Origin: a virus
Taxonomy: Duplodnaviria; Caudoviricetes
Length of the DNA stretch: 55,173 nt
IMG/VR virus record: IMGVR_UViG_3300034095_000182
Span: 1-55,173 of that record
Strand: one strand, 5' to 3'
Below, one piece after another: positions 2,749 through 51,514 of this stretch (positions are counted from its first letter, which is position 1; each line of letters begins with the position of its first letter). The notes beneath the pieces were generated by a model. The model made no database searches and was not told where the DNA came from. It saw nothing but the letters and a program-made list of their open reading frames with translations. Made by a program: the position numbers and the translations under genes.

Positions 2749-3032
2749 CAAACTTTATTGAACTGTTCAACATGGTGTCGCAGGTTGCGCGTCCGGCTCA
2801 CGCTAAGGAAGCACCTGCAACATCCATGGAAGACAAGTTGGCAGATATAGGTATCGACAGCCTTGATGGCTTGATCATGACAATGTACTTCTGTGAACTC
2901 TACGGAATTCCAGAAGACGACGAAACCAAAGACTGGCACCCGACCTCCGTTCAGGAGGTCTTCGACTATCTGATAAGGCGTAAAACGCAAGAGCCGGAAT
3001 CACTCGAAGCGGCCCGGGAGGCAATCAAGTGA
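2745..3032 (+). CDS. Acyl carrier protein
   Basis: DIGIDSLDGLIMTMYFCELYGIPEDD...TSVQEVFDYL aligns by eye with E. coli AcpP [21 protein letters not shown]...TTVQAAIDYI; phosphopantetheine Ser39; acidic, 95 aa. Confidence 0.9.
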   Translation: MTNFIELFNMVSQVARPAHAKEAPATSMEDKLADIGIDSLDGLIMTMYFCELYGIPEDDETKDWHPTSVQEVFDYLIRRKTQEPESLEAAREAIK

Positions 3033-6457: not shown

Positions 6458-9745
<3,288 letters not shown>

Positions 9746-24735: not shown

Positions 24736-25593
24736 ATGTACCAATATGCCCGTTCTGCAAACCAGACTTCCTTCCGCTCCAACGCTCCTTTGAGCAACGA
24801 GCAAATTGCCCAGTACGCACCCAGCGTGTTGGCTGAGACCGCCCACGAATCCCGTGGTGAGCGCTACACCTTCATCCCCACCATCCAAGTTCTGGACGGC
24901 CTGCGCAATGAAGGCTTCCAGCCCTTCGAGGTTCGTCAGACCCGCGTCAAGGATCAGTCCCGCCGCGAGTTCACCAAGCACATGGTGCGCCTGCGTCACG
25001 CCACCAGCATCGAGGCCGCTGTCGGTGAAGAAGTGCCCGAGATCGTGCTGATCAACAGCCACGACGGCTCCTCGTCCTACCAGTTGCTGGCCGGGTTCTT
25101 TCGCATGGTCTGCTCCAACGGCCTGATCGCTGGCGACATCTGCAACGACATCCGCGTGCGCCACTCCGGAAATGTGATCGACGATGTGATCGAGGGTTCG
25201 TTCCGCGTTCTCGACAATGTCGAGGAGATCGGCTCCCGCATCGAGACCTACAAGGCCATCGAACTCAAGCCCGAAGAGCAGTCGCTGTTCGCCAACGCCG
25301 CCCTGCAATTGCGTTGGGACGACAAGGCCCCCGTCGAGGCTGACCGCATCCTGCGTGCCCGCCGCTGGCAGGACAACAAGACCGACCTCTGGACGACCTT
25401 CAACCGCGTGCAGGAGAACATGATCAAAGGTGGTGTGGCTGGCCGCTCCGCTACTGGTCGCCGTATGTCCACCCGCGCTGTCGGTGGCGTCAATGAGAAT
25501 GTCAAGTTGAACCGCGCCCTCTGGACGCTGGCTGACGGCTTGGCCCAACTCAAGCAGGGCGTCGTGGACATCGAGGAACTGGTGGCCGCTTAA
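24736..25593 (+). CDS. DUF932 (DUF945) family protein
   Basis: APSV.A...HESR.ERY.FIPT, FTKHMVRLR, PEI.LINSHDGSSSYQ...G.FR.VC.NGLI and DLW.TFNRVQEN. Confidence 0.88.
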   Translation: MYQYARSANQTSFRSNAPLSNEQIAQYAPSVLAETAHESRGERYTFIPTIQVLDGLRNEGFQPFEVRQTRVKDQSRREFTKHMVRLRHATSIEAAVGEEVPEIVLINSHDGSSSYQLLAGFFRMVCSNGLIAGDICNDIRVRHSGNVIDDVIEGSFRVLDNVEEIGSRIETYKAIELKPEEQSLFANAALQLRWDDKAPVEADRILRARRWQDNKTDLWTTFNRVQENMIKGGVAGRSATGRRMSTRAVGGVNENVKLNRALWTLADGLAQLKQGVVDIEELVAA

Positions 25594-27193: not shown

Positions 27194-27778
27194 ATGCCTG
27201 AAACTGCCAGCAAACCGCGCAAAGCGCCTCAGAAGGCCGTGAAGCCCACCAAAGCAGGTGGAAGTACCAGCGCACCCCAAAAACCCGCCAAAGCCCCGAA
27301 AAAGACCCTCATCGGTCGTCCTACCAAGTACGACACCAACATCGCTTCCGAGATATGCGTAAGGCTCAGTAATGGAGAGCCATTGAGACAGATATGCATG
27401 GAAGACGATATGCCAGCGCAGTCGACGGTTTATCTCTGGTTGACGCGCCACCCTGACTTTTCGGAGATGTACGCACGCGCACGCGACGAGCAGGCCGACA
27501 CGCTGGCTGACCAGATCATCGCCATCGCCGACGAGATGCCGATGGAGACGACTGACAAGGACGGGAATACCAAATTCGACTCTGCCTACATTCAATGGCA
27601 GAGAAGCCGGGTTGACGCCCGCAAGTGGGTAGCGGCCAAACTCAAGCCCCGCAAGTACGGTGACCGCGTGGCGGTTGAGGGTACAGAGGATGGCGCCCCG
27701 ATCAAGACCGAGGACACCGGGTCAAGCCGCCTCTTCGAGTTGATCAAGAACATGGAGATGGCAAAGCGTGCTGGTTGA
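27194..27778 (+). CDS. terS: Terminase small subunit (Sf6/P22-like)
   Basis: GRPTKY...IC.RL.NGE.LR.IC...MP..STV..WL...F..MY.RAR...AD...R.RVDARKW.A.KL.PRKYGD. Confidence 0.9.
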   Translation: MPETASKPRKAPQKAVKPTKAGGSTSAPQKPAKAPKKTLIGRPTKYDTNIASEICVRLSNGEPLRQICMEDDMPAQSTVYLWLTRHPDFSEMYARARDEQADTLADQIIAIADEMPMETTDKDGNTKFDSAYIQWQRSRVDARKWVAAKLKPRKYGDRVAVEGTEDGAPIKTEDTGSSRLFELIKNMEMAKRAG

Positions 27779-29174
27779 ACACCTCGACGAAGAACTGGCC
27801 CGGGAGTTCGATGCCGAATCGCCCGAGAACCAGATCGCCGTCTTGGCTCACGCTGAATGGGTGGCTGGCGCCCACCGCTACCAGATACCGCCCCCGCTGG
27901 AGATCGATTACACCGTCTGGATGATGCTGGCTGGCCGGGGTGCAGGTAAGACCCGGAGCGCCGCTGAGGCCCTGTGGTGGTGGGCATGGATCACGCCCGG
28001 CTCTCGCTGTCTCGTGCTGGCCCCTACATCGAACGATGTGAAGTTCACTTGCTTCGAGGGTCAGTCTGGCCTGCTGTCAGTGATCCCGCAGGAACTGATC
28101 GTCGACTACAACAAGCAAGACCATCAGATCAAACTGATCAACGGCTCCATCATCCGGGGTATCTCAGCCGACTCATACGAGCGTCTGCGCGGCCCGCAGT
28201 GGCACTTCGCATGGTGTGACGAGTTGGCCGCATTCACCTACCTGCAAGAGGCGTGGGACATGATGATGTTCGGTCTGCGTCTGGGTGATCAGCCCCGCGT
28301 GATCGTGACCACGACACCGCGCCCGAAGGACTTGATCCTCGACCTCGTTGGCCGGGAAGGTGACGATGTCATCATTGACCGCGCCAGCACATACGAGAAC
28401 GCCGCCAACCTCGCTGAGAACTTCTCCAAGCAGTTGGAGCAGTACAAGGGTTCGAAGTTGTACCAGCAAGAGGTGCTGGGCGAGATCGTCGACCTCGAAG
28501 ACGGCAAGGTCGTGGGGCGCGATATGTTCAAACTGTGGCCCGCCAACAAGGCGTTCCCCAAGTTCGAGTTCATCATCCAGTCGTATGACTGCGCCTTCTC
28601 TGAGAAGACCTACAACGACCCGACGGCTATGACCACATGGGGCGTGTTCAAGCCCATGGACGGCCCAATGTCTGTCCTGCTGATCGACTGCTGGGCCGAG
28701 CATCTCGACTTCCCCCGGCTGAAGCCCCGCGTGCTGGATGAGTGGCGCGTCTCTTACGGTGAAGGCAAGGACGCCAAGCGACCCGACCTGATCATCGTGG
28801 AGGACAAGGCCGCAGGCATCTCGCTCATTCAGGAGTTGCGTCACGCCCACCTGCCTGTGATCCCATGGAACCCGGGCAAGGCCGACAAGATGCAACGCCT
28901 CCAGATCACCGCATCCATCTTTGCGACTGGCCGTGTCTGGTTGCCTGAGAGCGGTGTACGCAAGGGATATGTGAAGGACTGGGCCGAAGGGTTCCTGAGT
29001 CAGTTGTGTTCGTTCCCCGACTCATCGCATGACGACTATGTCGATAGCGCTACGCAAGCGATTCGATACCTCAAAGACGCGGGATGGCTAGATATAAATC
29101 CCGAGCCTCGTTATGATGATGATGATGATTACTTTGACGCCATGCCGAAGCGCGTCAATCCATACGCGGCGTGA
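27768..29174 (+). CDS. terL: Terminase large subunit
   Basis: AGRGAGKT Walker A, LRGPQ, WCDE Walker B, TTTP coupling motif, nuclease SYDCA, VEDKAAG and FP...HDDYVD. Confidence 0.95.
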   Translation: MLVEHLDEELAREFDAESPENQIAVLAHAEWVAGAHRYQIPPPLEIDYTVWMMLAGRGAGKTRSAAEALWWWAWITPGSRCLVLAPTSNDVKFTCFEGQSGLLSVIPQELIVDYNKQDHQIKLINGSIIRGISADSYERLRGPQWHFAWCDELAAFTYLQEAWDMMMFGLRLGDQPRVIVTTTPRPKDLILDLVGREGDDVIIDRASTYENAANLAENFSKQLEQYKGSKLYQQEVLGEIVDLEDGKVVGRDMFKLWPANKAFPKFEFIIQSYDCAFSEKTYNDPTAMTTWGVFKPMDGPMSVLLIDCWAEHLDFPRLKPRVLDEWRVSYGEGKDAKRPDLIIVEDKAAGISLIQELRHAHLPVIPWNPGKADKMQRLQITASIFATGRVWLPESGVRKGYVKDWAEGFLSQLCSFPDSSHDDYVDSATQAIRYLKDAGWLDINPEPRYDDDDDYFDAMPKRVNPYAA

Positions 29175-29185
29175 AGGGATAAAAC

Positions 29186-32100
29186 ATGGCGGACTACAAA
29201 AAGGCAGGAGCAAAATTCGCTGAGGCATTTGCCAAGGCGGGGAAAGAGGCCGAGGCCGCAATGGCCGCACAGAAGGCCGCTGAAGAGTCTGCCAAGATGG
29301 AGGCGATCCTCAAGTCAAAGCAGGCGCCCATGACCACGCCTCAAGGCACTGGCCTGCCGCTGATGCCTCGCTCTCAAGGGATGTACACACCCGGTGTGGA
29401 GCAGAAAGACCTGCCCCGGATGCCGATGGTTGACAAGGCCCGCGCAGAAGGCAAGACGCCCAAGTACACGCCCCGAATGCAAGACCTGCTGGACAGCCCG
29501 ACTGCCCGCAAGAAGGTCAACACGCTGATCGAGAAGGGGCGCGACCTCGGTATGACCGAGTGGTACGGCACCGAGCCTCTGCGTCAGGTCGCCATGGACA
29601 TCGGCATGAGCCAGAAGGACTTCGACACCTTCCTCGCCCAAATGGCCTCAGCGTCACAGCGCAACCCGGTCGACCAACAGAACAAGATGGGCAGTTACCT
29701 CTGGCACCTGAGTCAGACGGGCCAACTACCTGACGACGCATTCCTGCTGACCAACAAGATCAAGCGTGGCAAGGAAGCCGCGCCCAAAGGGACGGCCATC
29801 GAGTTGCCGCCCGGCTATGGATCGCTGGCGCAGGGTGACATCTTCTCCCGTGGCAAGCAGATCGCCGCCGGAGACATCGAGGGCGCCCTGCCTCCTGACA
29901 AGAAGTTGGGCACCTTCTACCGAAACTATCAAGGCAACCTCAAGCCCGTGACCGTCGATGTGAACGCGGTGCGTGGCCCCATCATCGAGCGTGGTGATCC
30001 GCGCTGGCTGGCTTCCAAGTTGGTCGAGAAGGATGAAGAGGGCAATGTGATCGCGACGCACTTTCCCCGGAAGGATGTCGAGTCGGGCAAGATGAGCATC
30101 AAGCAGGCGAAAGAACGCCCCGGCTTTTGGGAGGCCGCCCCCTCTGGTTCAGAGTATGCTGGTTTCGAAGACCTCTGGCAACGCGCCGCCAAGCGGTATG
30201 GCATCAGCCCCGCAGAAGCGCAGGCGCTGGGCTGGTACGGCTCTGCTGATGTGACCGCACTGAAGACCAAGCCGGAACTCTACATCGACAACCTCGAACG
30301 CATGATCCGCCGCACCGCCGAGCAGACGGGGCAGAATCCCCGGCAGGTGATGGAGGATGTCCTGCGTGGCAAGCAGTACCTCAAGAAGGATGGCGGCAAG
30401 GTGAGCGAGTCTGACTATCAGGCCCGCCTCGATGCAATGCTGGAGAAGGCTGTAGGCATGGCTAAGGGTGGCGCAGTGAGCGACTACCAGTCTCGTCTGG
30501 ACAGCATGATCGCCAAGCACATGGGCATGGCCGACGGTGGCGTGATCGACAACATGACGCCTGACATGACCGACAGCGGCGACATGAACTACGGCGGTGA
30601 GTACGCCGAAGGTGGTGCCGCATTCAAGACCCTGCAATTCAAGGCAGGCGGTGGCTGGGCCAAGGCAGGCAAAGCGATTGCCAAGGCCGCACAAGAGGCT
30701 GGCGCAATGAAGGCGCCCCAGACCGCAGAGAAAGACCTGACGACCCTGCAAGACTTCCACACCTCACTGGGTGATTCTGTGCGTGCTAGAGCCATGGAAG
30801 CCCAAAAGATGATGGAAGGGTTTGACTACAAGTACGACAAGGGCCAGCGCGTGTTCACCAAGGACAGCGCCGCCAAGAACAAGCCGCCCTACACAATCCT
30901 GCATCGCACTCGTGTGGGTAACGCACCCATGCGTGAAGACATGAGTGACTTGCGAAGCAAGAAGATCATCGATCCAGAGACTGGCAAGACTAAGCGCACG
31001 CCCTACGAACCCGGCTACCGTGTCCGCTATGAGAACGGTGACCAGTGGAGCGAGTTCGACATTCCGGCCTCAGCCATCATCGGCGATGTTGAGATGGCGA
31101 AGGGTGGCGAGATCAAGAGCCTGCCATGGAAAGCCAAGCAAGGCGGTGTCGCAAAGTTCGACGGTGGCGGTATCGCCAGCCCCGAAGAGAGCCTCACACC
31201 TCCCTCTGACAGCCCGAGCAAGTTACGCCTGACGGCAGAGATTCTGGCCCGCATGGCAAAGGAACAGGGCAAGGAAGAGATCGCATCCCTAAAAAAGCCC
31301 CGCGCCCTTACTGACCTAGTGAACCGGGGAATGATTGCCCCGCTGGTTGGTGCCCCTGTTGACATCATCAACATGGGGTTGGAGGGCGTCGACGCTCTGC
31401 GTGATTTAGCGAGTGGTAAGCGAGTCGAAAACCGATTGGCTTCTGAGAAACCTGTGGGCGGATCAGAGCAGATCAAAGACCTGATGAACCGCTTCAACAT
31501 GACAAGCGGTGAAGACCGTCCCATGATGGAAACGGGCCTGTCGTTGGTGTCTCCTGCTGGTGTAGTGAAGGGCACAGCCAAGACCGGGCAGAAAGCCACT
31601 GGCGCCCTGAGTAAAGTCAACACAGAGTTAAACAATTCTGGTAAACTAACCGTCCCCCTCACTGAGGCAAAGACGGCTACGACCGGGACACCACAAGGAG
31701 CAAAGTATGCAACCAAACAAGAAGGGCCTTACTTCAGAGTCAGGCCAACCGCCGCTGATACGAGCAAGGCAAAAGGTAGCGGAACTAGAGAAGCGACTGG
31801 GCTACCAGTCGAAAGGTCTGTCGGACAAGGATCGGGAGAAACTGGACTCGGACTTCCGCAACGCTATTCGCCGGAGGAAGTGGATCGAATAATCGCCGAT
31901 CCGAACCTCAACGAACCGCTACAGATCGCACAGCGATACACCAAAGAGAATCTGGGCACTGACTTCGTCGCGCCCGACATTCCCCCTAGCAGTCTCGCCA
32001 AGCAGAGCGCGATTGCCCGCACGCATGAACTCGCGCTGACTGACAGCCCCGAGTACAAGGATGCCGTGTTCTCGGCCTATGCCCGCACCATGCCCGATGT

Positions 32101-33241
32101 GCTGGAGCAGGCTGGCGCCAAGGACTACGACGACCTCATGGAGAAGGCATACCGCCAACTCGCCAAAGAGACCGACGCCCAGTTCCAAGCCCTGCCGTTC
32201 AACTTCTCGTACCACCGTGGTGGCGAGGGCAACTACAGCGGAACCCGCGAACTCCTCGAAGACATCCATGGCAACAAGCATATGTATGTCTACCAAGGCG
32301 GCGACAAGCATGACTTCCTGAACAAGGTCGACGATGTCACGGGCCTGAACGAGAACGAGAAGTTCCGCGCAGTGCATGACGCCATGGGCCACGCCATCTA
32401 CGGCAACGAGTTTGGCCCGCTGGGTGAAGAGAAGGCATGGGCCATCCACCAGCAGATGTACAGCCCGCTGGCCCGTCTGGCAATGACCGCAGAGACCCGG
32501 GGCCAGAACTCACTGGTCAACTACAGCCCGCTCAATGTCAACATCAAGGAGGAGGTCGCCAAACTGCGCGAGATGCAGATTGAGGCCCGCCGCCGTGGTG
32601 ACCGTGAGGGTGAGCGCATTGCCACTGAGGCCATCCGCGACGCCTTCAGCGGCTTCCAGTTCGCGCCCCAGAAGTCGATCCTTCTGCCGCCCGAGTTTGT
32701 CGATCCCAAATACCGTGGCGGGATGCCTGAGTACATCCAGCCGCTGATCACCCCAGCCGCAGGCACGACAACGCAGTCGGCCCTGACGCACTTCTCGCAC
32801 AACCCCAACCTAACGGTGACCGATCCGGCCAAGTACGGCTCTGGCATCAAGGGCGCGGAGAAGGCCCGTCTGGAGGGCACAGACAATCCGCTGGTGCCCC
32901 GCACTTACTTCTACGCTGGCGAACCCGGCGCAGTAGCACCGGAACCCGGCCTCGGAGTGAATCGTTACCGAACCGAATCCGAATCGCTTTACGACATCAC
33001 CAAAGACCCGCTGAGATTCCGTCCGCTGGCCCGTGAGTCGAATCGCACCCCTTTCACCTCGAAGTACAACGCAGGCATGAGGTCGCCCGATCAGGAATTG
33101 ACTGACATGGAGCGCATGATCCGCGAGTACGGCTACGAGGGCTACATCAACCCACAAGCAAGCAAACCTGCCGCAGTGGTCTACACACCCAAGCAGGTGG
33201 AGCGCCGCCGTAAAGGTGGACTTGCTCTGGCAAAAGCATAA
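29186..33241 (+). CDS. Large multi-domain (polyvalent-type) protein
   Basis: 1351 aa with distinct globular blocks (glycosylase-like, small beta domain, HDxxGH block, ART-like C-terminus) separated by xAxGG/xKxGG linkers. Confidence 0.75.
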   Translation: MADYKKAGAKFAEAFAKAGKEAEAAMAAQKAAEESAKMEAILKSKQAPMTTPQGTGLPLMPRSQGMYTPGVEQKDLPRMPMVDKARAEGKTPKYTPRMQDLLDSPTARKKVNTLIEKGRDLGMTEWYGTEPLRQVAMDIGMSQKDFDTFLAQMASASQRNPVDQQNKMGSYLWHLSQTGQLPDDAFLLTNKIKRGKEAAPKGTAIELPPGYGSLAQGDIFSRGKQIAAGDIEGALPPDKKLGTFYRNYQGNLKPVTVDVNAVRGPIIERGDPRWLASKLVEKDEEGNVIATHFPRKDVESGKMSIKQAKERPGFWEAAPSGSEYAGFEDLWQRAAKRYGISPAEAQALGWYGSADVTALKTKPELYIDNLERMIRRTAEQTGQNPRQVMEDVLRGKQYLKKDGGKVSESDYQARLDAMLEKAVGMAKGGAVSDYQSRLDSMIAKHMGMADGGVIDNMTPDMTDSGDMNYGGEYAEGGAAFKTLQFKAGGGWAKAGKAIAKAAQEAGAMKAPQTAEKDLTTLQDFHTSLGDSVRARAMEAQKMMEGFDYKYDKGQRVFTKDSAAKNKPPYTILHRTRVGNAPMREDMSDLRSKKIIDPETGKTKRTPYEPGYRVRYENGDQWSEFDIPASAIIGDVEMAKGGEIKSLPWKAKQGGVAKFDGGGIASPEESLTPPSDSPSKLRLTAEILARMAKEQGKEEIASLKKPRALTDLVNRGMIAPLVGAPVDIINMGLEGVDALRDLASGKRVENRLASEKPVGGSEQIKDLMNRFNMTSGEDRPMMETGLSLVSPAGVVKGTAKTGQKATGALSKVNTELNNSGKLTVPLTEAKTATTGTPQGAKYATKQEGPYFRVRPTAADTSKAKGSGTREATGLPVERSVGQGSGETGLGLPQRYSPEEVDRIIADPNLNEPLQIAQRYTKENLGTDFVAPDIPPSSLAKQSAIARTHELALTDSPEYKDAVFSAYARTMPDVLEQAGAKDYDDLMEKAYRQLAKETDAQFQALPFNFSYHRGGEGNYSGTRELLEDIHGNKHMYVYQGGDKHDFLNKVDDVTGLNENEKFRAVHDAMGHAIYGNEFGPLGEEKAWAIHQQMYSPLARLAMTAETRGQNSLVNYSPLNVNIKEEVAKLREMQIEARRRGDREGERIATEAIRDAFSGFQFAPQKSILLPPEFVDPKYRGGMPEYIQPLITPAAGTTTQSALTHFSHNPNLTVTDPAKYGSGIKGAEKARLEGTDNPLVPRTYFYAGEPGAVAPEPGLGVNRYRTESESLYDITKDPLRFRPLARESNRTPFTSKYNAGMRSPDQELTDMERMIREYGYEGYINPQASKPAAVVYTPKQVERRRKGGLALAKA

Positions 33242-33250
33242 GGAGAAAAC

Positions 33251-35758
33251 ATGGCAACACAGATGCCTATCGACCCAGAATTTAACCGCTTCATTGAGGG
33301 CCTGAAAGACTCGCCTGAAGGAGGTCTTGAGGTCGAACTGCCGCCTGAAGACGCTGATGTTGAGGAGATGCCTGACGGCTCTGCTGTGGTGACCATGGAA
33401 GAGTTCAATGGCCCCAGCGAGAACGAAGACTTCTACGGCAACATGGCCGAGAACTATGACTTCTTCGAACTTGACAAGATTGCCCTGCGCTACATCGAGT
33501 TGGTGGGCAAGGACAAAGAGGCCCGCAAGGAGCGTGACAAGCAGTACGAAGAGGGCTTGAAGCGCACTGGCTTGGGCAACGACGCGCCCGGCGGCGCTCA
33601 GTTCCAAGGCGCCAGCAAGGTCGTGCATCCGATCATGGCCGAGGCGTGCGTGGACTTTGCTTCTCGCGCCATGAAGGAGATGTTCCCGCCTGATGGCCCG
33701 ACCCGCACCAAGATTCTGGGCGAGGTCACTGAAGAGAAGACCGAGATCGCCGAGCGCAAGCGCGACTACATGAACTGGCAGTTGACCGAGCAGATTGAGG
33801 AGTTCCGAGACGAGCAAGAGCAGTTGCTGACTCAGTTGCCTTTGGGTGGATCACAGTTCCTGAAACTCTGGTACGACGAGCAGAAGAAGCGCCCATGCGC
33901 TGAGTTCGTGCCTATCGACAACATCCTCCTGCCGTTTGCCGCGACCAACTTCTACACGGCACAGCGTGCAACCGAAAAGCAAGAGATCACTGACTGGGAA
34001 TTCAAGACTCGGATCAGCCGTGGCCTGTACCGCGATGTCTCGTTCATCCGGGCCACCGCAGAACCCGAGCAAAGCGCCGCAGAGAAGGCCAACGAGAAGA
34101 TCGAAGGCAAGCAGTACCAAGACGGTTCTGACGGCCTGCGCACGGTCTATCACATCTACACATGGTTGACCCTTGACGACGACCAGTACAGCAAAGGCGA
34201 GAACGCCCCCTACATCCTGATGATCGATGAACTCGACAATAAGGTTCTGGGCCTGTACCGGAACTGGGAAGAGGGCGACGAGACGATGACCAAACTGGAC
34301 TGGATCATCGAGTACAAGTTCATCCCGTGGCGCGGCGCTTATGCTATCGGCCTACCCCACCTGATCGGTGGTCTGTCTGCCGCGCTGACGGGTGCCTTAC
34401 GCGCCCTGCTGGACACCGCGCATATCAACAACAGCGCGACTATGCTCAAGATCAAGGGCGCGAAGATCAGCGGCCAGTCACAGAATGTGGAGGTCACGCA
34501 GGTCACTGAGATCGAGGGCGCCCCGGGCGTGGACGATGTCCGCAAAATCGCCATGCCGATGCCGTTCAATCCGCCTTCGCCTGTCCTCATGGAGTTGCTG
34601 GGCTGGATCACAACCGCCGCCAAGGGCGTGGTTACCACCGCCGAGGAAAAGATTGCCGATGTGAAGTCTGGCACCCCTGTGGGCACAACGCAGGCTCTGA
34701 TCGAGCAAGGCGCCGCAGTGTTCTCCAGCATCCACGCCCGCCTGCATGACAGCCAAGGCCGTCTGCTCAAGGTGCTGGGCCGCATCAACCGCTGGTATCT
34801 GGACGAGCAACGCAAGGGCGATGTGGTCGCCGAGTTGCCAATCCGCCGCGATGACTTCAAGCGCAACAGCGATGTGGTGCCTGTCAGCGACCCGCACATC
34901 TTCAGCGAGACCCAGCGTATCGCCCAGATGCAGGCCGTGATGCAGATGGCGCAAGCCTACCCGCAGATTTTCGACCAGCGTGCCGTTGTGGGCCGGATGC
35001 TCAAGCAGTTGAAGGTGCCCAATGTCAACGAACTGATCCCGAACGCTACCAAACCTGCCGAGATGAATGCCGCAGACGAGAACAGCGCCATGGCTCTGGG
35101 TCGTCCTGCCTTCGCATACCCTCGCCAAGACCAATTGGCGCACCTACAGTCGCATTTGAACTTCGCCCTAGACCCTACCCTAGGCTCGAACCCTTTGATC
35201 GCTCCAAAGTACATCCCGCAGGTTTTGGAGCATATCAAGCAACACATGATGCTCTGGTACACAAGCCAGATGTCTGGCTATGTGCAAGGTGGCACCAAGG
35301 TCAACTTCGACAAGTACGAGGACAGCAAACTGGTCAAAGAGATCGACAAGGCCATCGCGCTGGCGTCCGACCATGTCAAGATGGACACGCAAGAAGTCTT
35401 CCAAGGCGTCATGCCAGCCCTACAGCAACTCCAGCAGATCATGCAACAGTTCAAACCGCCTGCACCGCCTATGGATGGCGAGGCACAAGCCGTGTTGCAA
35501 GCCTCTTTGGCAGAGACTCAGCGTCGCGCCGCACGCGATCAAGCCGACATCCAACTCGACAGCGCACGCCTACAGGCCGATGCGGCAGAGAAAGAAAAGG
35601 ATCGTCAGGTCAAGATCGCCATGAACGCCGAGAACAACCTTACGCAGGAGCGCATCAAGACCGCCGAATTGACGGTTGACGAGGCGAAACTGCAAAAAGA
35701 GCAGTCGGAAACTGCAATCAAACTCAACGAAGCAACTCAACGCAACCTAGGAGGTTAA
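33251..35758 (+). CDS. Portal protein (P22-like with C-terminal helical barrel)
   Basis: 835 aa; GAS.V.HP..AEACVDF..RA..E.FP.DGP..TKI.G, YMNWQLT, LPLGGS.F.K and a Gln-rich helical tail; position near terminase. Confidence 0.88.
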   Translation: MATQMPIDPEFNRFIEGLKDSPEGGLEVELPPEDADVEEMPDGSAVVTMEEFNGPSENEDFYGNMAENYDFFELDKIALRYIELVGKDKEARKERDKQYEEGLKRTGLGNDAPGGAQFQGASKVVHPIMAEACVDFASRAMKEMFPPDGPTRTKILGEVTEEKTEIAERKRDYMNWQLTEQIEEFRDEQEQLLTQLPLGGSQFLKLWYDEQKKRPCAEFVPIDNILLPFAATNFYTAQRATEKQEITDWEFKTRISRGLYRDVSFIRATAEPEQSAAEKANEKIEGKQYQDGSDGLRTVYHIYTWLTLDDDQYSKGENAPYILMIDELDNKVLGLYRNWEEGDETMTKLDWIIEYKFIPWRGAYAIGLPHLIGGLSAALTGALRALLDTAHINNSATMLKIKGAKISGQSQNVEVTQVTEIEGAPGVDDVRKIAMPMPFNPPSPVLMELLGWITTAAKGVVTTAEEKIADVKSGTPVGTTQALIEQGAAVFSSIHARLHDSQGRLLKVLGRINRWYLDEQRKGDVVAELPIRRDDFKRNSDVVPVSDPHIFSETQRIAQMQAVMQMAQAYPQIFDQRAVVGRMLKQLKVPNVNELIPNATKPAEMNAADENSAMALGRPAFAYPRQDQLAHLQSHLNFALDPTLGSNPLIAPKYIPQVLEHIKQHMMLWYTSQMSGYVQGGTKVNFDKYEDSKLVKEIDKAIALASDHVKMDTQEVFQGVMPALQQLQQIMQQFKPPAPPMDGEAQAVLQASLAETQRRAARDQADIQLDSARLQADAAEKEKDRQVKIAMNAENNLTQERIKTAELTVDEAKLQKEQSETAIKLNEATQRNLGG

Positions 35759-35940: not shown

Positions 35941-36122
35941 GGTATGTATCCGACTTCATTGGCGCTGTAAAAGCGCGTAGAGCCGAGATCGCCGAGTCGA
36001 TTGCCGCAGGCAACTGCGTCAACTTCGAGTCGTATCAGAGGCTGGTCGGTCAACTTCAGGGCCTTGAAGAAGCCCTTGTAATCCTTAACAACCTATTGAA
36101 GGAAGAAGAAGATGACAACTAA
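35937..36122 (+). CDS. Small head-module protein
   Basis: 61 aa; G...NFESYQRLVGQLQGL. Confidence 0.7.
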   Translation: MRYVSDFIGAVKARRAEIAESIAAGNCVNFESYQRLVGQLQGLEEALVILNNLLKEEEDDN

Positions 36123-36537
36123 ACCGGAAGCGGGTAATGCCGCTGACATCGCTTGGGCATTTCCGAGCGTCGACCCCGGTGCCAAGCCCCTTGGTGGGCG
36201 AGTTTTGGTGCAACTGCGCCGCACAAAGAAAACTGTGACGAGTGCCGGGATTATTTTGGTCGAAGAGACCAAGGAAACCGAGAAGTGGAACAACATGGTC
36301 GCCAAAGTGATCGAGAACGGGCCTCTTGCTTTCAAGAAGCGCGACTCGATGGAGCCGTGGCCCGAGGGTTCATGGTGTGAGCCGGGCGACTACATCCGCG
36401 TCCCCAAGTGGGGCGGAGACCGTTGGGAGGTCGAGGTGGGTGACGAGGAAGAAAAAGCCTTGTTCATGATCCTCAATGACCACGAAATCATCGCCAAAGT
36501 CACTGGCGATCCACTTCAAATGAGGGCATTCGTATGA
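36112..36537 (+). CDS. GroES-like co-chaperonin
   Basis: KPLGGRVLV...T.AGIIL...AKVI..GP...GD.I...KWGG...ILNDHEIIA matches the Cpn10 signature. Confidence 0.85.
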   Translation: MTTKPEAGNAADIAWAFPSVDPGAKPLGGRVLVQLRRTKKTVTSAGIILVEETKETEKWNNMVAKVIENGPLAFKKRDSMEPWPEGSWCEPGDYIRVPKWGGDRWEVEVGDEEEKALFMILNDHEIIAKVTGDPLQMRAFV

Positions 36538-39670: not shown

Positions 39671-40120
39671 ATGGCACAAACCTACTTTGGTTCAACCCTG
39701 CGCTCCGGTTCTGGCACATTGACTGACACTACTGACGGCGGATTCGTCGTTTTGAGTCAGACCACTACTGTCACTACCGCGTCCGCAGGTACTGCAACAA
39801 GTGCATCACTGACGCTCCCTGCCAATTCCCAAATCATCGACTTCAATGTCGACATGGTTCAGGATGAGGTAGTTGGCGGAGGTACTGCAACACAAATCGC
39901 GATGACTATCGGAACTGCGGCGGCAGGCACTCAATATGTGTCTTCCACCAACATTTTCGCTGGTGGCCGCGCCGCTTTGACCTTTACCGCCGCTCAATTG
40001 GCCGCGATGGCTGACATTGGCTCCAACCAGTCTGTCTTCATCACTGTCGATCCCAACGGCACGATCAGCACGACTCAAGCGATTGTTCGCCTGACCGTTG
40101 TGTATGCTCAGAAAGTTTGA
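39671..40120 (+). CDS. Virion structural protein
   Basis: 149 aa, Thr-rich beta sandwich-like (LPANSQI.D). Confidence 0.65.
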   Translation: MAQTYFGSTLRSGSGTLTDTTDGGFVVLSQTTTVTTASAGTATSASLTLPANSQIIDFNVDMVQDEVVGGGTATQIAMTIGTAAAGTQYVSSTNIFAGGRAALTFTAAQLAAMADIGSNQSVFITVDPNGTISTTQAIVRLTVVYAQKV

Positions 40121-40131
40121 GGAGGCACACT

Positions 40132-41274
40132 ATGGGCCAATTCAAACCTATGGTCAAGATGATGACCACCGAGCCTTCAGTTGAATTGAAACTGAAGAAG
40201 GGTGGCTCCGTCAAATCGATGACCAAAATGAAGTCCGGTGGCAGTGGCTCCGGTCACAAGAAGATGGCTGACGGTGGTGGTGCGATGAGCGCCATCATGG
40301 GCACGCCTGCTCTTGTTGGTCGTCCTGCTGTCAATGCGCCTGTACGCACCCCCGGCAAGCCTCCGATGGCTCAACGCCGCAAGGCAATGGCCCCGAAGGC
40401 TAAGATGCCCGCAACCCCGATGATGAAGAAGGGTGGCGAGACTGAGAAGGAACACAAGGCTGAGATGTCGAAGATGAAGGGTCTTGAAAAAGAACTGAAG
40501 TCTCACGAGTCCAAGCCTGCCAGCAAAGGCCATAAAGGTCTGAAGACTGGTGGTGTTGCCAACGGTCAGGGTGGCTACAAAAAAGGTGGCGCAACCAAGA
40601 AGTACGCCAAAGGCGGAATCATCAACACCGAGAATCAAGGTGGCGCTTATCGCAACACCAAGATGCACACCGCTGAATACACTGGCAAGACCAGTGGAAC
40701 TACTGGCGGCGTGAAAGAAGGCAACGCAGGCGGTTATAAGACTGGCGGCGTAGCACTCGGCAATGGCGGTGGTTACAAGATGGGCGGTAAGGCAAAAAAA
40801 GCCTTCGCGGCGGGGGGAACTGTTGATAGCGGCCACCCCGTCGCAATGCCCCAAGGCCGCAAAAAACCGTCGACGCCCGTAAGCATCAATCAACTCGCTG
40901 GTACCTTCAAAAAGGGTGGCTCTGTTACCCCGGCGCAAGGTGGCTTGCAGAAGATGTTCGCAAAGGAAAACGCCCCGGCCATGAAAGCGGCCAAAGCGCA
41001 ATCCAACGAGGTCTACAGCAAGTACGGCAAGATGAAGATGGCGAAAGGTGGCGAAGTTGAGGATATGTCCAAAGGTGCATATGACCGTCATTACGCTCTT
41101 GAGAAAGAGGAGAATGAGGCCATGAGAAATGCAGTGATGGGCATTCCTAAGCGCATGATGGAAGGAGTCAAGGGTCTATTCGGGCCTAAGAATCCAAAAG
41201 GCGCCGAGAGTGTGACCAAGACCGAAAAGTCTGTAACAGTCACACCTGCTAAAAAGCGCGGTGGTCGTTGTTGA
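40132..41274 (+). CDS. Basic low-complexity protein with 13 xxxGG motifs
   Basis: GAGGAGG RBS, ATG 40132; Lys/Met/Gly-rich, 380 aa. Confidence 0.8.
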   Translation: MGQFKPMVKMMTTEPSVELKLKKGGSVKSMTKMKSGGSGSGHKKMADGGGAMSAIMGTPALVGRPAVNAPVRTPGKPPMAQRRKAMAPKAKMPATPMMKKGGETEKEHKAEMSKMKGLEKELKSHESKPASKGHKGLKTGGVANGQGGYKKGGATKKYAKGGIINTENQGGAYRNTKMHTAEYTGKTSGTTGGVKEGNAGGYKTGGVALGNGGGYKMGGKAKKAFAAGGTVDSGHPVAMPQGRKKPSTPVSINQLAGTFKKGGSVTPAQGGLQKMFAKENAPAMKAAKAQSNEVYSKYGKMKMAKGGEVEDMSKGAYDRHYALEKEENEAMRNAVMGIPKRMMEGVKGLFGPKNPKGAESVTKTEKSVTVTPAKKRGGRC

Positions 41275-42445: not shown

Positions 42446-42853
42446 ATGCCAGCAAAGAGCAAGTCCCAGTTTCGCTTGATGAAGGCCGCAGAGAACAATC
42501 CTGCGTTTGCCAAAAAAGTCGGTATCAGCAAGTCGACTGCGGCTGAGTTTACTTCGTCAAATACTGGCAAGAAGGCTTACGCAAAACTCCCGGAGAACAA
42601 GGCCAAGGGCGGTGTGTCTTTGGCTGTTGGTCGTGGTGAGAAACTTCCGACCGATAAAGGTGCTGGTCTTACAGCGAAGGGTCGGGCAAAATATAACCGT
42701 GAGACTGGGAGCAATTTGAAGGCTCCGCAACCTCAAGGTGGGTCGCGCAAGGATTCGTTTTGTGCGCGAATGTCAGGTGTAGTAGAACATTCAAAAGGGG
42801 ACGCGGAACGCGCCAAAGCATCGCTAAAGCGTTGGAAGTGCCCCGGATGGTAA
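42446..42853 (+). CDS. Basic two-module protein
   Basis: MPAKSKSQFRLM...FAKKVGI module + KAKGG + GLTAKGRA...NLKAP...SFCARM module. Confidence 0.7.
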   Translation: MPAKSKSQFRLMKAAENNPAFAKKVGISKSTAAEFTSSNTGKKAYAKLPENKAKGGVSLAVGRGEKLPTDKGAGLTAKGRAKYNRETGSNLKAPQPQGGSRKDSFCARMSGVVEHSKGDAERAKASLKRWKCPGW

Positions 42854-48239: not shown

Positions 48240-49331
48240 ATGAGTGAAATTCGAGCAGGCACTACGACCACAACGGCGCTGACTTCAACTGGCGACACGA
48301 CGGGTAATCTCGTTCTGACGCCAGATTCCGGTATTGCAACAATTAACGGAACTGGTGCGCTTACGATTGCAAAAGGCACAACCGCGCAACGCCCCGGCTC
48401 TCCGGTTACTGGTATGCAACGATTCAACACTACACTTGGTTATCCGGAGTGGTATGACGGCGCAACTTGGCAAGCAATTCAGCAGTCAGTATATGCTATT
48501 GATTATCTGGTGGTTGCGGGTGGCGGCGGCGGTGGTGGAGCAGGGCCAGCAAACGCCGGAGGCGGCGGCGGCGGAGCAGGAGGCTATATTGCCTCGTCAT
48601 ACTCATCAGTTCTACAGGGCACTTCTTACTCAATCACAATTGGGGCTGGCGGCGCTGGCGGAAACTCATCAAACGACAATAAAACATCTGTTTCTGGGTC
48701 AAATTCTTCTTTGATAGGAACAGGAATTAGCCAAACTGCGATTGGCGGAGGTTCTGCTCCAAACAGTAACAACACTTATAACGGCGCCGACAGAAATGGT
48801 GGTTCTGGCGCCGGAGGCTCTGGTAACCCAAATTCATCGACAGGTTTCCCGGGTTCAGGAACTTCGGGCCAAGGCAACTCTGGAGGAACATCTGACTACG
48901 CCACAAATTATGGTGGCGGCGGGGGAGGTGGTGCTGGCGCCGTCGGGGGAAATGCAACTTCTACAACAGCGGGAAATGGCGGAAATGGCCTAGATTGGCA
49001 ATCTCTTGGAACCTTTTACGCTGGTGGTGGCGGCGGTGGTTTATACAATTCTTCGTCATATTCTTCCGGAGGGTCGGGTGGCGGCGGTGCTGGTAGCGGA
49101 AATAACACTGGTTCTGCCGCTCCTTCAGGCACAGCGAACAGAGGTGGTGGCGGAGGAGGTAATGCAGGAGCGGCTGGCGGCGGTGGTGGCGGAAACGCCG
49201 GGGGCGCGGGCGGCTCCGGTATCGTAATCATTCGCTACGCAGGTTCTCAGCGTGGCACGGGAGGCACAGTGACCTCTGTTGGCGGCTACACCTACCACAC
49301 CTTCACAACCAGTGGCACCTACACGGCATAA
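48240..49331 (+). CDS. Glycine-rich tail fibre/spike protein, paralog 1
   Basis: YLVVAGGGGGG...GGSGIVIIRY...HTFTTSGTYTA. Confidence 0.8.
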   Translation: MSEIRAGTTTTTALTSTGDTTGNLVLTPDSGIATINGTGALTIAKGTTAQRPGSPVTGMQRFNTTLGYPEWYDGATWQAIQQSVYAIDYLVVAGGGGGGGAGPANAGGGGGGAGGYIASSYSSVLQGTSYSITIGAGGAGGNSSNDNKTSVSGSNSSLIGTGISQTAIGGGSAPNSNNTYNGADRNGGSGAGGSGNPNSSTGFPGSGTSGQGNSGGTSDYATNYGGGGGGGAGAVGGNATSTTAGNGGNGLDWQSLGTFYAGGGGGGLYNSSSYSSGGSGGGGAGSGNNTGSAAPSGTANRGGGGGGNAGAAGGGGGGNAGGAGGSGIVIIRYAGSQRGTGGTVTSVGGYTYHTFTTSGTYTA

Positions 49332-49345
49332 GAGGGAAAAAGAAT

Positions 49346-50419
49346 ATGACATCAATCATCAAAGCAGACGACGGAGTTGTATCCGGCGTCACTGGTATAA
49401 CCAGCAACGCTGACAACACTGGCACGCTTGAGTTGCAAGCGACGAGTGGTCTAGTCAACATGAACAATGTGACGGGCGCACTGGCTTTGCCAGCAGGAAC
49501 AACTGCACAGCGCCCTGCAAGCCCGATAAATGGACAACAGCGCTACAACACCTCAACAAATGTTGTTGAGGTTTATGTAAATGGTTCTTGGGTAACTGTT
49601 ACGACATCAACTCCTACCTACACTGCTAATTACCTTGTTGTTGCTGGCGGTGGTTCTGGTGGTGGCATTAACTCTGGTGGCGGTGGTGGCGCGGGCGGAT
49701 TGTTGACAGGAACAGCAACTTTTACCCCTTCTACAGCATACTCAGTAGTAGTTGGAGCAGGAGCGTCTGGAACATCGAGTGCGGTGCAAGGCTCAAACGG
49801 CTCCAATTCAACTCTAGGAACATTGGTTAACGGCTCAACTGGCGCAGTTGGTGGAGGCGGGGGCGGTAGCAACGAGTTGTCTAGCAGTTCTGCTAATAGA
49901 AATGGCTTGTCTGGCGGTTCTGGCGGAGGCGGTTCTTATAACGCAGGTAATGGCGGATCAGGGACTGCTGGTCAGGGAAATGCTGGTGGCGCAGGAAGCG
50001 GTAGTGTCGGTGCCGGGGGCGGTGGCGGAGGCGCAGGCGCAATAGGCTCAACTCCCGGAGGAGTTCCGGGTGGCGATGGCGGCGCAGGAACTGCATCAAG
50101 CATATCTGGCTCTTCTGTTACATACGCTGGTGGCGGAGGCGGAGGCGCTAATGGTGGCAGTGGAGGAACTGGCGGCGCTGGCGGTGGTGGCAATGGAGGT
50201 TTTTCGACAACTACATCCGCAACCAGCGGAACAGCAAACACTGGCGGAGGTGGTGGCGGAGCGGGCGCTTCTGGCACAACGCCGTTATCTGGAAATGGTG
50301 GCTCTGGGATTGTGATTATTTCTTACGCTGGTGCCCAACGGGGCACGGGCGGAACGGTCACTTCCGCTGGCGGAAACACAATCCACACCTTCACCACTTC
50401 TGGAACATACACCGCATAA
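49346..50419 (+). CDS. Glycine-rich tail fibre/spike protein, paralog 2
   Basis: Same architecture and C-terminus as paralog 1. Confidence 0.8.
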   Translation: MTSIIKADDGVVSGVTGITSNADNTGTLELQATSGLVNMNNVTGALALPAGTTAQRPASPINGQQRYNTSTNVVEVYVNGSWVTVTTSTPTYTANYLVVAGGGSGGGINSGGGGGAGGLLTGTATFTPSTAYSVVVGAGASGTSSAVQGSNGSNSTLGTLVNGSTGAVGGGGGGSNELSSSSANRNGLSGGSGGGGSYNAGNGGSGTAGQGNAGGAGSGSVGAGGGGGGAGAIGSTPGGVPGGDGGAGTASSISGSSVTYAGGGGGGANGGSGGTGGAGGGGNGGFSTTTSATSGTANTGGGGGGAGASGTTPLSGNGGSGIVIISYAGAQRGTGGTVTSAGGNTIHTFTTSGTYTA

Positions 50420-50431
50420 GGAGAAAAGAAT

Positions 50432-51514
50432 ATGGCACAAATTTTCAGCGGCACAGACGGAACGACTCCATCGTCATGGACGACGGCGGGGCGTCCAACT
50501 TCGCCTGCAAACGGCCAGTTTGGTCTGAACACCACCCTCAATCAGATGGAGTGGTACAGCACCACATCTGGGTCATGGATTCCATTTAGTGACCCAACTC
50601 AATATTCCGTTCAATACATAGTTGTTGCTGGCGGTGGCGCCGGAGGCATGGGGCAAACTGCTGGTGCCGCTGGCGGCGGAGCGGGTGGTTATCGCTCTTC
50701 AGTGACTGGAGAATCATCCGGGGGAGGTGGCTCTGCCGAATCCGCTTTAACCCTAACTCCCGGAACTACTTATACGGTAACTGTTGGTGCTGGCGGTTCT
50801 GGTTCTGCCAGTGCGGGTCAAAACGGAGCAAACGGAAGTAATTCTGTTTTTTCAACCATTACATCGATTGGCGGTGGTGGTGGACAGGGTTATGTATCCA
50901 CATCTGGCGGCACAGCCCCTTCTGGCGGTTGCGGCGGAGGTGGTGGCGCTCAAAACGGTTTAGGCGGGGCAGGAACTACTAATCAGGGATACGCTGGAGG
51001 AAATGGTAATGGAGGCGCCGACAATTACCCCGGTGGTGGCGGGGGTGGTGCCGGAGCAATCGGTCAAACATCTCCAGCGGCAAATAACGGCAAGGCTGGT
51101 GCGGGCGGGGTTGGTGTGCAGTCCAACATTGATGGAAACAATTACTACTATTCTGGTGGTGGTGGTGGTGGTGGTTACCAATCTGGAAACGGCGGTGGAA
51201 ACGGCGGTCTTGGCGGCGGCGGTGGTGGATCAACCGAGATTGGCGCAGGGGGAACTGGAGGTGGCTCTGCAAGGAACAGTGGTCAAGCAGGTGGCACCCT
51301 TAGTGGTGGTGCCAACCTATCCGCCGGAGGCGCAAACACTGGCGGTGGCGGTGGCGCTGGATATGTCACTCTTTCTGGAACCGCTGGCAACGGCGGCTCT
51401 GGCATTGTGATTATTCGCTACGCTGGCACGCAACGCGGCACTGGTGGAACCGTTACATCTTCCGGTGGATATACCGTCCACACATTCACTTCATCTAGCA
51501 CTTACACTGCTTAA
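50432..51514 (+). CDS. Glycine-rich tail fibre/spike protein, paralog 3
   Basis: Same architecture and C-terminus as paralog 1. Confidence 0.8.
   Translation: MAQIFSGTDGTTPSSWTTAGRPTSPANGQFGLNTTLNQMEWYSTTSGSWIPFSDPTQYSVQYIVVAGGGAGGMGQTAGAAGGGAGGYRSSVTGESSGGGGSAESALTLTPGTTYTVTVGAGGSGSASAGQNGANGSNSVFSTITSIGGGGGQGYVSTSGGTAPSGGCGGGGGAQNGLGGAGTTNQGYAGGNGNGGADNYPGGGGGGAGAIGQTSPAANNGKAGAGGVGVQSNIDGNNYYYSGGGGGGGYQSGNGGGNGGLGGGGGGSTEIGAGGTGGGSARNSGQAGGTLSGGANLSAGGANTGGGGGAGYVTLSGTAGNGGSGIVIIRYAGTQRGTGGTVTSSGGYTVHTFTSSSTYTA

Follow-up and report, generated by a model that had tools for sequence, protein, structure and literature searches.

The window analysed here, 55,173 nucleotides long, is IMG/VR virus record IMGVR_UViG_3300034095_000182 (Duplodnaviria; Caudoviricetes), a complete virus of 55173 bp. 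Between its large terminase (TerL) and portal genes lies ORF 29186-33241 (+), an open reading frame (ORF) that is open over its length and whose product, P0001, has 1351 amino acids (aa); the gene order is TerS, TerL, P0001 gene, portal. P0001 is a member of the known class of polyvalent proteins. Its modules are units of evolutionary exchange, each with a Gly-Gly (GG) tail on its C-terminal side, and they are gained and lost between repeated GG cassettes. We consider it likely that P0001 is a polyvalent cargo protein in which independently folding, enzyme-like modules are strung on these flexible, conserved cassettes. From the N-terminus, the chain would consist of an Ala/Lys helix, a module with the helix-hairpin-helix (HhH)-GPD fold (block B), a GG cassette, a helix with an SH3-like barrel (block D), a second GG cassette, segment F, a G-I “supermodule” and a GG tail. 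The supermodule would combine a His/Asp/Glu-rich helical domain (block G) and a domain with the ADP-ribosyltransferase (ART) fold (block I). All coordinates are given in Table 1. The initial annotation, made from the sequence alone, had placed the ORF between terminase and portal, with which the Pfam and PHROG matches of both neighbours agree, and all 15 of the motifs it quoted were found where it had put them.

The blocks of P0001 recur independently in other phages. Of 7996 candidates scored in a word-indexed search, 400 were homologous at E≤1e-3. Among the best 120, a BLAST map shows full-length collinear relatives with 56-84% identity, as well as many homologs that share just one part of the protein, namely aa 1-406/410, aa 411/416-641/649 or aa 643/657-1350. 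The homology breaks at GG stretches, at aa 406-410, ~490 and 641-657. On the same map, the order of the blocks is permuted in P0055, P0093 and P0117, and insertions between query residues 648 and 657 are seen in P0004, P0008, P0018 and P0038. The insert of P0008 is an ART-PolyVal domain (aa 655-793, E 4.5e-14) and that of P0038 a GDSL lipase (aa 601-739, E 8.8e-14), the others being unknown domains. In homologs, the inserted modules are bracketed by ..MAKGG, ..RMAEGG, ..KARGGLTRMAEGG, ..YKRGG or ..YKRGGAV, and ..KFDGGG. Isolated phages also match P0001 piecewise, with aa 70-404, aa 874-1116 and aa 1177-1351 each found in different phages. Among those matched in block B by tblastn are the Roseobacter phages CRP-3, CRP-212 and CRP-901.

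The G-I unit is especially widespread. When aa 870-1351 were used as the query of a full HMMER search, 4611 cluster representatives were obtained at E≤1e-3, of which 2868 reach E≤1e-10; in the top 150, most matches span nearly the full query length, anywhere within proteins of 222-3277 residues, and block I is joined to block G in all 150. ART-PolyVal, LPD23, LPD37, InPase, PcfJ, Phage_lysozyme2 and Amidase_2 co-occur with G-I in the 25 longer relatives that were scanned, and these domains, together with the GDSL lipase, are fused to P0001 blocks in homologs. These partners place G-I in the domain network that Iyer et al. (2017, PMC5512222) described for polyvalent proteins. Names of structural neighbours in BFVD include “Large polyvalent protein associated domain-containing,” “ART-PolyVal-like,” “Phage head morphogenesis” and “Structural protein.” P0001 itself contains none of the Pfam polyvalent domains at Pfam thresholds, and its sole Pfam match is DUF7178 at aa 217-263, with 26.2 bits under a cut-off of 27. 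In the PHROG scan, phrog_3170 matched aa 934-1113. PDB sequence and profile searches with P0001, A1, A2 and block G gave no match, an NCBIfam search gave no family match, and the ESM Atlas gave no named match, only one viral cluster without a name. The proposal in the initial annotation of a polyvalent-like modular protein is upheld by the recurrence of the blocks beside known polyvalent domains.

The interval between terL and portal, referred to here as the slot, was compared in relatives. A portal-based IMG/VR scan gave at least 600 relatives in viral contigs, from which 80 loci were kept; 65 of these have terL and portal on one contig. Their TerL identity is 36-90% and their portal identity 63-97%. 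The slot is filled in all 65: the gap measures 1387-8155 bp and contains one or two large ORFs, of 443-1717 aa. Module content was scored with the P0001 blocks, two inserts and a local ART model. ART was present in 31 loci, segment F in 20, block B in nine, the insert X4 in eight, G-I in seven, block D in three and GDSL in one; 22 had none of them, and the modules occur in many orders. ART aside, segment F is the module most often common to near relatives. A Pfam scan of 38 slot proteins detected ART-PolyVal, PcfJ and LPD23 only. A comparison of this interval for module swapping at GG linkers had been suggested as a check in the initial annotation, and modules are indeed swapped, added and dropped at GG cassettes. 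Caulobacter phage RW (portal 49% identical) has a tRNA only and no protein gene in its slot, and MW202545.1 (portal 64%) has an 890-aa slot protein that is unrelated to P0001 (best BLASTP E 0.67), yet contains MAKGG motifs; being unrelated, it was left out of the mapping of breakpoints.

Two variants of slot organization were also observed. A more distant clade (L050, L052, L054, L058-L060, L062 and others) has two slot ORFs, with a 4-base overlap between the stop of one and the start of the next; the first ORF ends in ..DDLILEERPL and the second in ..FMELSNKKLKRK. In addition, L024 looks like a split form of the single ORF of L027.

Next, the GG motifs of P0001 were counted and compared with shuffled sequences. 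Runs lie at residues 403, 428, 451, 470, 476 and 488, at 640, 653 and 660, and elsewhere at 758, 1012, 1038, 1178 and 1344. The first group lies in aa 400-489, where the initial annotation had counted five motifs rather than six; its count of three for the second linker was right. The total is ordinary, since 16 overlapping GG were found against 12.1 ± 3.1 in shuffles, a number reached by 269 of 2000 shuffles. The clustering of six runs in one 90-aa window is unusual (reached by 15 of 5000 shuffles), and three runs in 25 aa are not (496 of 5000). Ten of the 14 runs lie in, or at most two residues from, AlphaFold segments with a predicted local distance difference test (pLDDT) score under 50, which make up 243 of the 1351 residues. 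Linker 1 also holds two tandem 23-aa helical repeats, SDYQ.RLD.M..K..GMA.GG. Tandem Repeats Finder reported just one 18-bp, 1.9-copy repeat in the linker (30563-30597), and the 23-aa repeat is visible at the protein level alone.

The position of GG relative to module ends was determined in all fetched proteins by counting a GG at most 20 residues outside a module end; its frequency in a random 20-residue window is 0.158. Outside the C-terminal end, GG was present in 130/143 cases for block B, 44/44 for block D and 65/75 for G-I. Outside the N-terminal end, the counts were 7/123, 0/44 and 10/146. When only hits with less than 60% identity were considered, the asymmetry was kept for G-I (61/71 vs 7/45) and was weaker for block B (18/30 vs 4/27). 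Of 124 homologs, 123 have a GG at most 20 aa upstream of segment F. Nearly every G-I unit finishes in TPV.R...GG.V, often followed by VHMA.GG(G), and when the unit is last in the chain, the protein finishes in ..R..[KRH]GG-L.L.K. A GG occurs in the last 14 residues of 159/381 proteins (background 0.119), and exactly five residues follow it in 88 of the 159.

The same motif is found where chains begin and end. Slot proteins often start with MADPKKIIGGLGKASKRL, related ones begin MAD.KK..GGL..., and GG is present in the first 16 aa of 14/65 first slot ORFs. They often end in ..KKRRGGLAAMSR or ..RKRGGLTQLKAR, with GG in the last 12 aa in 20/65, and K or R is among the last three residues of the last slot ORF in 56/65 loci. 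A basic-GG-Leu motif caps many N- and C-termini.

Junctions between modules carry GG as well. In five pairs of slot proteins that differ by a module and whose flanks are at least 75% identical, 10 of 10 junction windows hold GG. The ART insert of L014 and the GDSL insert of L009 are each flanked on both sides by the cassette GG.AFK(T/K)(L/I)(Q/A)F; in L007 the cassette is repeated in tandem with no insert in between, and P0001 has one copy, at aa 476-486. A longer cassette, GG.V.ISDNPDTM.LEL, gave 21 regular-expression matches in 85 slot proteins compared to 1.3 in shuffles. With a hidden Markov model (HMM), it was found in 40 of the 85 slot proteins and in nine of 384 fetched proteins. The strict HMM of this cassette matched neither P0001 nor any other ORF of the window, which has diverged forms only. 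LPD23 was considered as a linker cassette and rejected because LPD23 sequences are a different small domain.

The junctions resemble a C-terminal tail fused to an N-terminal head, which fits in-frame fusion by recombination at a shared end motif. The GG cassettes would serve as flexible in-frame joints, and short shared coding stretches (basic-GG-Leu/Val, AFKTLQFK and GG.V.ISDNPDTM.LEL) would let recombination fuse or swap modules with the reading frame kept. Judged from these sequences, homology-driven recombination at cassette copies is plausible.

The folds of the modules were examined in two AlphaFold models, in which four or more blocks fold separately. For the N-terminal half (aa 1-656, 73-row alignment), the mean pLDDT was 78.7, and the C-terminal half (aa 657-1351, 695 residues, 90 rows) was modelled with a mean pLDDT of 79.7 and a predicted template modelling score (pTM) of 0.75. 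In the N-terminal model, pLDDT is >90 over most of aa 60-400 and 540-640, 71-75 at aa 520-539, and <50 at aa 403-406, 444-491 and 641-656, which are the GG stretches. In the C-terminal model, pLDDT is low at aa 657-833, ~88 just before aa 846 and >90 in most 10-residue blocks from aa 846 to ~1336, with a reduction around aa 866-895. The catalytic competence of the modules is putative.

Block B has, in the predicted structure, a two-lobed helical fold in which the helix-hairpin-helix is present, and a VIA structure comparison puts true DNA glycosylases first. The HhH glycosylase-like domain proposed in the initial annotation is therefore borne out at the fold level for aa 60-400. Foldseek against the PDB returned no row at E≤1e-3 for the N-terminal half. 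Asp258, in VTVDVNA, is invariant in all 73 rows and directly precedes a helix (259-269). We take it to resemble the catalytic Asp that follows the hairpin, here LPPGYGS at 207, in EndoIII-type enzymes, a likeness of motif rather than a residue-level superposition. The comparison set comprised the HhH-GPD glycosylases Tm1821/Ogg, AGOG, EndoIII, MagIII, Mag1 and MutY, and the queuine-salvage DUF2419. Block B differs from the HhH-GPD glycosylases by the lack of a Pfam HhH-GPD match, the lack of Fe-S cysteines and a distance of ~46 residues from hairpin to Asp, compared to ~20 residues in EndoIII.

Block B could also be a glycosylase-derived base-modifying enzyme, with P0001 acting late in the infected cell, for example on phage DNA, and not being packaged. 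Foldseek matches of block B include the phage 5-PmdU glycinyltransferase gp46/PUGT (8z2n) as well as the glycosylase AGOG (probability 0.51 and 0.28, E ~0.13), but these E values are far above the significance mark and VIA ranks true DNA glycosylases first. Moreover, no partner enzymes of thymidine hypermodification were seen in the PHROG (38 ORFs) and Pfam (33 ORFs) scans, outside of which some small ORFs fall, and the gene is inside the head-assembly block. We regard this explanation as highly unlikely.

The entire P0001 contains no cysteine in its 1351 residues. The shorter homologs P0216, P0220 and P0224 carry the domain DUF6321 joined to block B; the window encodes this domain separately, in a 135-aa ORF at 42446-42853 (+; E 5.4e-17) just before the SU10-type adaptor gene.

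Residues 547-640 form a five-stranded small beta barrel, whose structure matches are PWWP at 7.4 and SH3, Tudor and KOW at ~6. Residues 1189-1346 show the split beta-sheet of the ART fold in the predicted structure. Both agree, at the fold level, with the SH3-like and ADP-ribosyltransferase-like domains that had been guessed from remembered motifs. When block I was compared by hhalign with 11 ART-PolyVal regions, the alignment ran end to end over 123 columns (E 3.4e-4, probability 37.7%) and set LTHFS over the His strand. Conserved in block I are H1202 and S1204 (LTHFS), R1239, Y1241 and Y1243 (RTYFY), and E1225, E1253 and E1309. No Pfam match was obtained at E≤1, and block I is below every family threshold; one of 18 relatives matches PARP at E 0.1. 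Block I was compared with ART-PolyVal (PF18760) and with small ART-fold proteins, which are 6kyf, presumably the ADP-ribosylating anti-CRISPR AcrIF11, and the RES/MbcT/NatT group of NAD+-degrading toxins. It differs from ART-PolyVal in that the Glu column is not conserved and in its junction with block G.

Block G holds the most conserved residues of P0001 over 90 sequences and is probably a metal-dependent enzyme. Strictly conserved are H1010, D1026, H1042, D1049, H1064, D1065, H1069, E1081, E1082, H1088, E1103 and R1105, many of which fall in the motifs FRAVHD..GH (1060-1069), GEE (1080) and ETRGQNS (1103). There was no Pfam, NCBIfam or PDB match for block G, and no Pfam family recurs in 18 relatives. 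It was modelled within the 695-residue half, and the helical hairpin (aa 1116-1188) filled most of the VIA match list. The zincin-like domain of the initial annotation is not supported, because HExxH and HxxEH are both absent from P0001 and no family match was found; the sole His pair of zincin-like spacing is HDAMGH at 1064. Therefore, three of its four fold guesses stand, at the fold level.

Other assignments of block G were tried and rejected. HDAMGH was likened to what we take to be the His-x4-His iron motif of aromatic amino-acid hydroxylases, and Foldseek did list TPH, PAH and TH chains, with E 0.03-1, rmsd ~18 and a TM score of at most 0.14. VIA gave no meaningful alignment with them, 7vgm alone appearing and being matched on the helical hairpin, and the PDB profile search was empty; this reading was dropped as unsupported. 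HD, PAP2 and phospholipase ideas left only a trace, an NCBIfam PAP2 match at E 0.084, with no recurring Pfam family.

If P0001 is a cargo chain, it is probably made late, packed into the head near the portal and delivered with the DNA. The delivered modules would act on host DNA (the glycosylase-like one) and on host proteins, nucleic acids or NAD+ (the ART-like one and its partner domain), for takeover or counter-defence. We infer packaging and delivery from the place of the gene within the head-assembly block, from class membership, from the relatives of block G and from a finding in phi24B virions. Block G occurs within a 4012-aa “lysin” that adjoins a lysozyme protein in Microcystis phage Mel-JY33 and within a 2772-aa “large polyvalent protein” of phage Pag-Yong1, and it is shared by gp205 of Rhodococcus phage E3, which is annotated as “structural protein.” About 35% of polyvalent proteins are in phages with portal-terminase packaging (Iyer et al. 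2017, PMC5512222). A 2811-aa polyvalent protein was found in virions of podophage phi24B by mass spectrometry (preprint 10.64898/2026.04.10.717836). A complex prediction of the portal with segment F (aa 657-816) scored 0.00, which gives no verdict and is evidence neither way.

Several observations weigh against the cargo-chain reading or parts of it. Block B misses the Pfam cut-off of DUF7178 and has no HhH-GPD match in Pfam, and its PDB profile search was empty. In the alignment with ART-PolyVal, a non-conserved Ala of block I stands at the Glu column. A further main breakpoint of homology, at ~aa 845, lies in a disordered stretch without GG, so that the module borders expected at GG motifs were found at aa 406-410, ~490 and 641-657 and not there. 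The sets used for GG polarity hold many closely related sequences, and their counts are not independent events. The DNA identity of cassette copies is only ~80% over ~40 nucleotides (the L007 copies). No MuF, portal-fusion or known head-targeting domain was detected in P0001 in the Pfam and PHROG scans. Finally, linker GG motifs also occur in other predicted head-interior proteins of this phage, which hints at a function beyond a recombination joint.

Two ORFs are concerned. The first, 40117-41274 (+), lies two genes after the major capsid gene and encodes a very basic, Met/Lys/Gly-rich protein of 385 aa with 19 GG runs, many of them KKGG.V, MADGGG or MAKGGE, and the ending ..KKRGGRC. It had no Pfam or PHROG family, and its sole match in the phage database was MW202545.1 (36% over half the length). 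A head-interior, DNA-contacting or scaffold-like role is possible for this protein, which would consist of linker cassettes. The second, 6461-9745 (+), is an internal-protein-like ORF of 1094 aa whose C-terminal end has weak tape-measure PHROG matches; it carries KKGGL (581), MADGG (918) and KRGGL (993). The presence of MA.GG and K(K/R)GGL in both suggests that the cassettes may also be a head-interior signal or a maturation site.

As a signal, the basic-GG-hydrophobic cassettes would be docking or DNA-contact motifs for the head interior or the packaged DNA, and their position at module borders would be secondary. This would account for the motif at N- and C-termini, for K or R at the end of the last slot ORF, for MAKGG in the unrelated slot protein of MW202545.1 and for the 385-aa protein by the capsid gene, which is built largely of KKGG.V units. 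However, the strict cassette GG.V.ISDNPDTM.LEL of the slot proteins is not in P0001, and a single targeting signal per chain would suffice, not nine. We consider this explanation rather doubtful.

As a maturation site, the GG tails would be proteolytic, and a phage or host protease would cut the polyprotein at head maturation or after ejection, freeing the effectors. GG is found on the C-terminal side only of each module, and the last module keeps GG and a conserved cap, mostly of five residues, which would be needless for a mere linker. The motifs in ORFs 6461-9745 and 40117-41274, both likely head-interior, are the pattern expected of a maturation-protease site. Polyubiquitin and some viral polyproteins offer an analogy, being cut after Gly-Gly, and processing has a precedent in DdrB of phage P1 (PMC5512222). 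On the other hand, no protease family was found in 33 scanned ORFs of the phage, in P0001 or in the 38 slot proteins of relatives. The residues before GG vary (K, D, E, A, Q, Y, R), so there is no clear P4-P1 signature, and those after GG do not include Ser, Thr or Cys, which makes acyl-shift self-cleavage unlikely. Also, the virion RNA polymerase of phage N4, a polyvalent protein, is packaged uncut (PMC5512222). Since a protease was not found, the cutting into single effectors suggested in the initial annotation is weakened; the polarity of the tails and the cap keep it alive as an unlikely explanation.

A more general form of these two ideas is that the phage reads the GG cassettes as a common code, for cutting or for docking in the head interior, and this also appears improbable to us. 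If they are cut sites, effectors would be released one by one from a chain resembling polyubiquitin, in which even the last module ends in GG and a short cap. If they are docking tags, this would fit the motif at protein ends and its abundance in other basic head-interior proteins of the phage. In either case, any cassette-flanked enzyme would become deliverable cargo, which would explain the slot's uptake of almost any domain.

P0001 could instead be part of the ejection apparatus, such as an internal core or ejectosome, with enzyme-like folds that are relics or aids in breaching the wall or membrane. Block G is found in giant cyanophage proteins that adjoin lysozyme-bearing internal proteins, and an ejection-conduit role for gp47 is proposed by the phi24B authors (10.64898/2026.04.10.717836). 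Large genes for internal-protein-like products, though, form a run of their own in this phage (4586-14368), with a glucosaminidase/SLT protein among them. Close relatives differ by exchange of the entire slot content, and Caulobacter phage RW lacks a gene there, unlike an essential part. The His/Asp/Glu residues of block G do not vary, nor does Asp258 of block B, as would be the case in active enzymes. A structural role is very doubtful in our judgment.

The cargo-chain reading was compared with known systems. Like the polyvalent proteins of Iyer et al. (PMC5512222), P0001 is a long multi-domain chain of a portal-terminase phage, its gene lies among virion genes and its domains are extremely shuffled. 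It differs from them in having no Pfam polyvalent domain, in that its DUF7178-like HhH fold and G-I have no curated family, and in that no peptidase domain was found in it, while many members of the class have one. Head-packed enzymes that are delivered with the DNA for host alteration or anti-restriction include Alt, an ADP-ribosyltransferase, and the internal proteins of T4, DdrB/Dar of P1 and the N4 virion RNA polymerase (PMC5512222). Packaging is proven for those proteins and inferred for P0001, and neither a capsid-targeting signal of the T4 type nor a head protease was identified for P0001 or this phage. In T4, an N-terminal capsid-targeting peptide is removed by the head protease. Like P0001, gp47 of phi24B is a very large polyvalent protein, here of a podophage; it is in virions by proteomics but not in ordered density (10.64898/2026.04.10.717836). 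This protein of 2811 aa differs in its LPD5, LPD1, LPD38 and MuF-C peptidase (metallopeptidase) domains, none of which is shared with P0001.

A parallel for the GG grammar is found in the gp38 adhesins of T-even phages, in which short conserved Gly-rich motifs delimit swappable hypervariable segments and presumably guide recombination. In the adhesins, loops of a single host-range domain are exchanged; in P0001, the exchanged units are whole enzyme domains, and the motif also caps protein ends.

In a limited literature check, we did not find a description of the polar GG-tail and cassette grammar, of the always-filled terL-portal slot in this group of phages, or of the HhH-glycosylase-fold and G-I modules as polyvalent cargo. 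The words “linker,” “glycine” and “glycosylase” are absent from the main text of PMC5512222, whose supplements may list these modules under different names, and the literature search returned no paper on DUF7178.

Polyvalent proteins are regarded as the phage weapons that arrive in the cell first, and little is known of how they are assembled in evolution and delivered. The slot appears to be an always-filled, hypervariable cargo site in widespread ~55-kb aquatic phages and could be a natural library of candidate anti-defence or takeover enzymes. The C-terminal GG tail and the cassettes at insertions suggest a direct hypothesis for in-frame domain shuffling, and the GG grammar could help to divide giant phage proteins that are still uncharacterised into domains for testing. 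The analysis also brings to light two large domain families that have not been curated, the G-I supermodule with its strictly conserved His/Asp/Glu site and the DUF7178-like module with a predicted HhH-glycosylase fold.

Table 1. Features of the P0001 gene, its neighbours and the motifs of its blocks, in window coordinates and P0001 residues
Feature	Nucleotides	Residues (aa)	Strand	Remarks
Small terminase	27194-27778			phrog_1482, E 1.7e-44
Large terminase (TerL)	27768-29174		+	upstream slot border; Terminase_6N, E 1.7e-24; phrog_38, phrog_2
Whole P0001 gene	29186..33241		+	likely polyvalent cargo protein, 1351 aa
N-terminal Ala/Lys-rich helix	29195..29314	4-43	+	AlphaFold helix, pLDDT 50-64; then a low-confidence stretch to ~aa 60
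Block B	29363..30385	60-400	+	predicted HhH-GPD DNA-glycosylase fold, DUF7178-like; LPPGYGS hairpin 207; Asp258 in VTVDVNA
GG linker 1	30386..30730	401-515	+	six GG runs, repeats, AFKTLQFK cassette, Ala/Lys helix
Block D	30731..31102	516-639	+	long helix and SH3-like small beta barrel (aa 547-640)
GG linker 2	31103..31207	640-674	+	MAKGG, KQGG, FDGGG; pLDDT ~42; module insertion site in relatives
Segment F	31208..31510	675-775	+	conserved, poorly structured; pLDDT 30-66
Ser/Thr/Gly-rich disordered spacer	31511..31690	776-835	+	pLDDT under 50; high-scoring segment pairs end at query 845 or 790-796
Block G	31691..32530	836-1115	+	mostly helical; pLDDT above 90; phrog_3170, E 1.2e-12
Helical hairpin and connector, G to I	32531..32749	1116-1188	+	helices at model residues 459-498
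Block I	32750..33214	1189-1343	+	predicted ADP-ribosyltransferase-fold domain
C-terminal GG tail	33215..33238		+	KGG-LALAKA; homologs finish ...R..[KRH]GG-L.L.K
Portal	33251-35758		+	downstream slot border; phrog_1216, E 2.5e-23; start ten bases 3' of P0001 gene
Motifs of block B				WYG 126, ASASQRNPV 154, KLGTFYRNYQG 240, VTVDVNA 255, AAKRYGISPAEAQALGW 334
Motifs of block D				KGQRVF 552, PGYRVRY 609
Motifs of block G				FRAVHDAMGH 1060, GEEKAW 1080, MYS 1091, ETRGQNS 1103
Motifs of block I				LTHFS 1200, PRTYFY 1238, LYD 1268, IREYGYEGY 1312

A few other genes of the phage were recorded. A GroES/Cpn10-like gene (36112-36537, +; E 3.5e-7) lies between portal and capsid, a place that is kept in MW202545.1 and Caulobacter phage RW. 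Three tandem paralogs of 363, 357 and 360 aa at 48240-51514 (+) match phrog_2295; each has 21-28 GG runs, and they probably encode variants of a tail fibre or spike. The one that was scanned with Pfam (48240-49331) has a Gly_rich_2 domain. A DUF932 protein (24736-25593, +; E 1.4e-49) is encoded in the early or middle region. Lastly, the 371-aa product of the ORF at 3029-4144 (+) contains both domains of a beta-ketoacyl synthase, the N-terminal one at E 2.1e-6 and the C-terminal one at 6.4e-16, and matches phrog_35856, which is unusual among tail and internal-protein genes.

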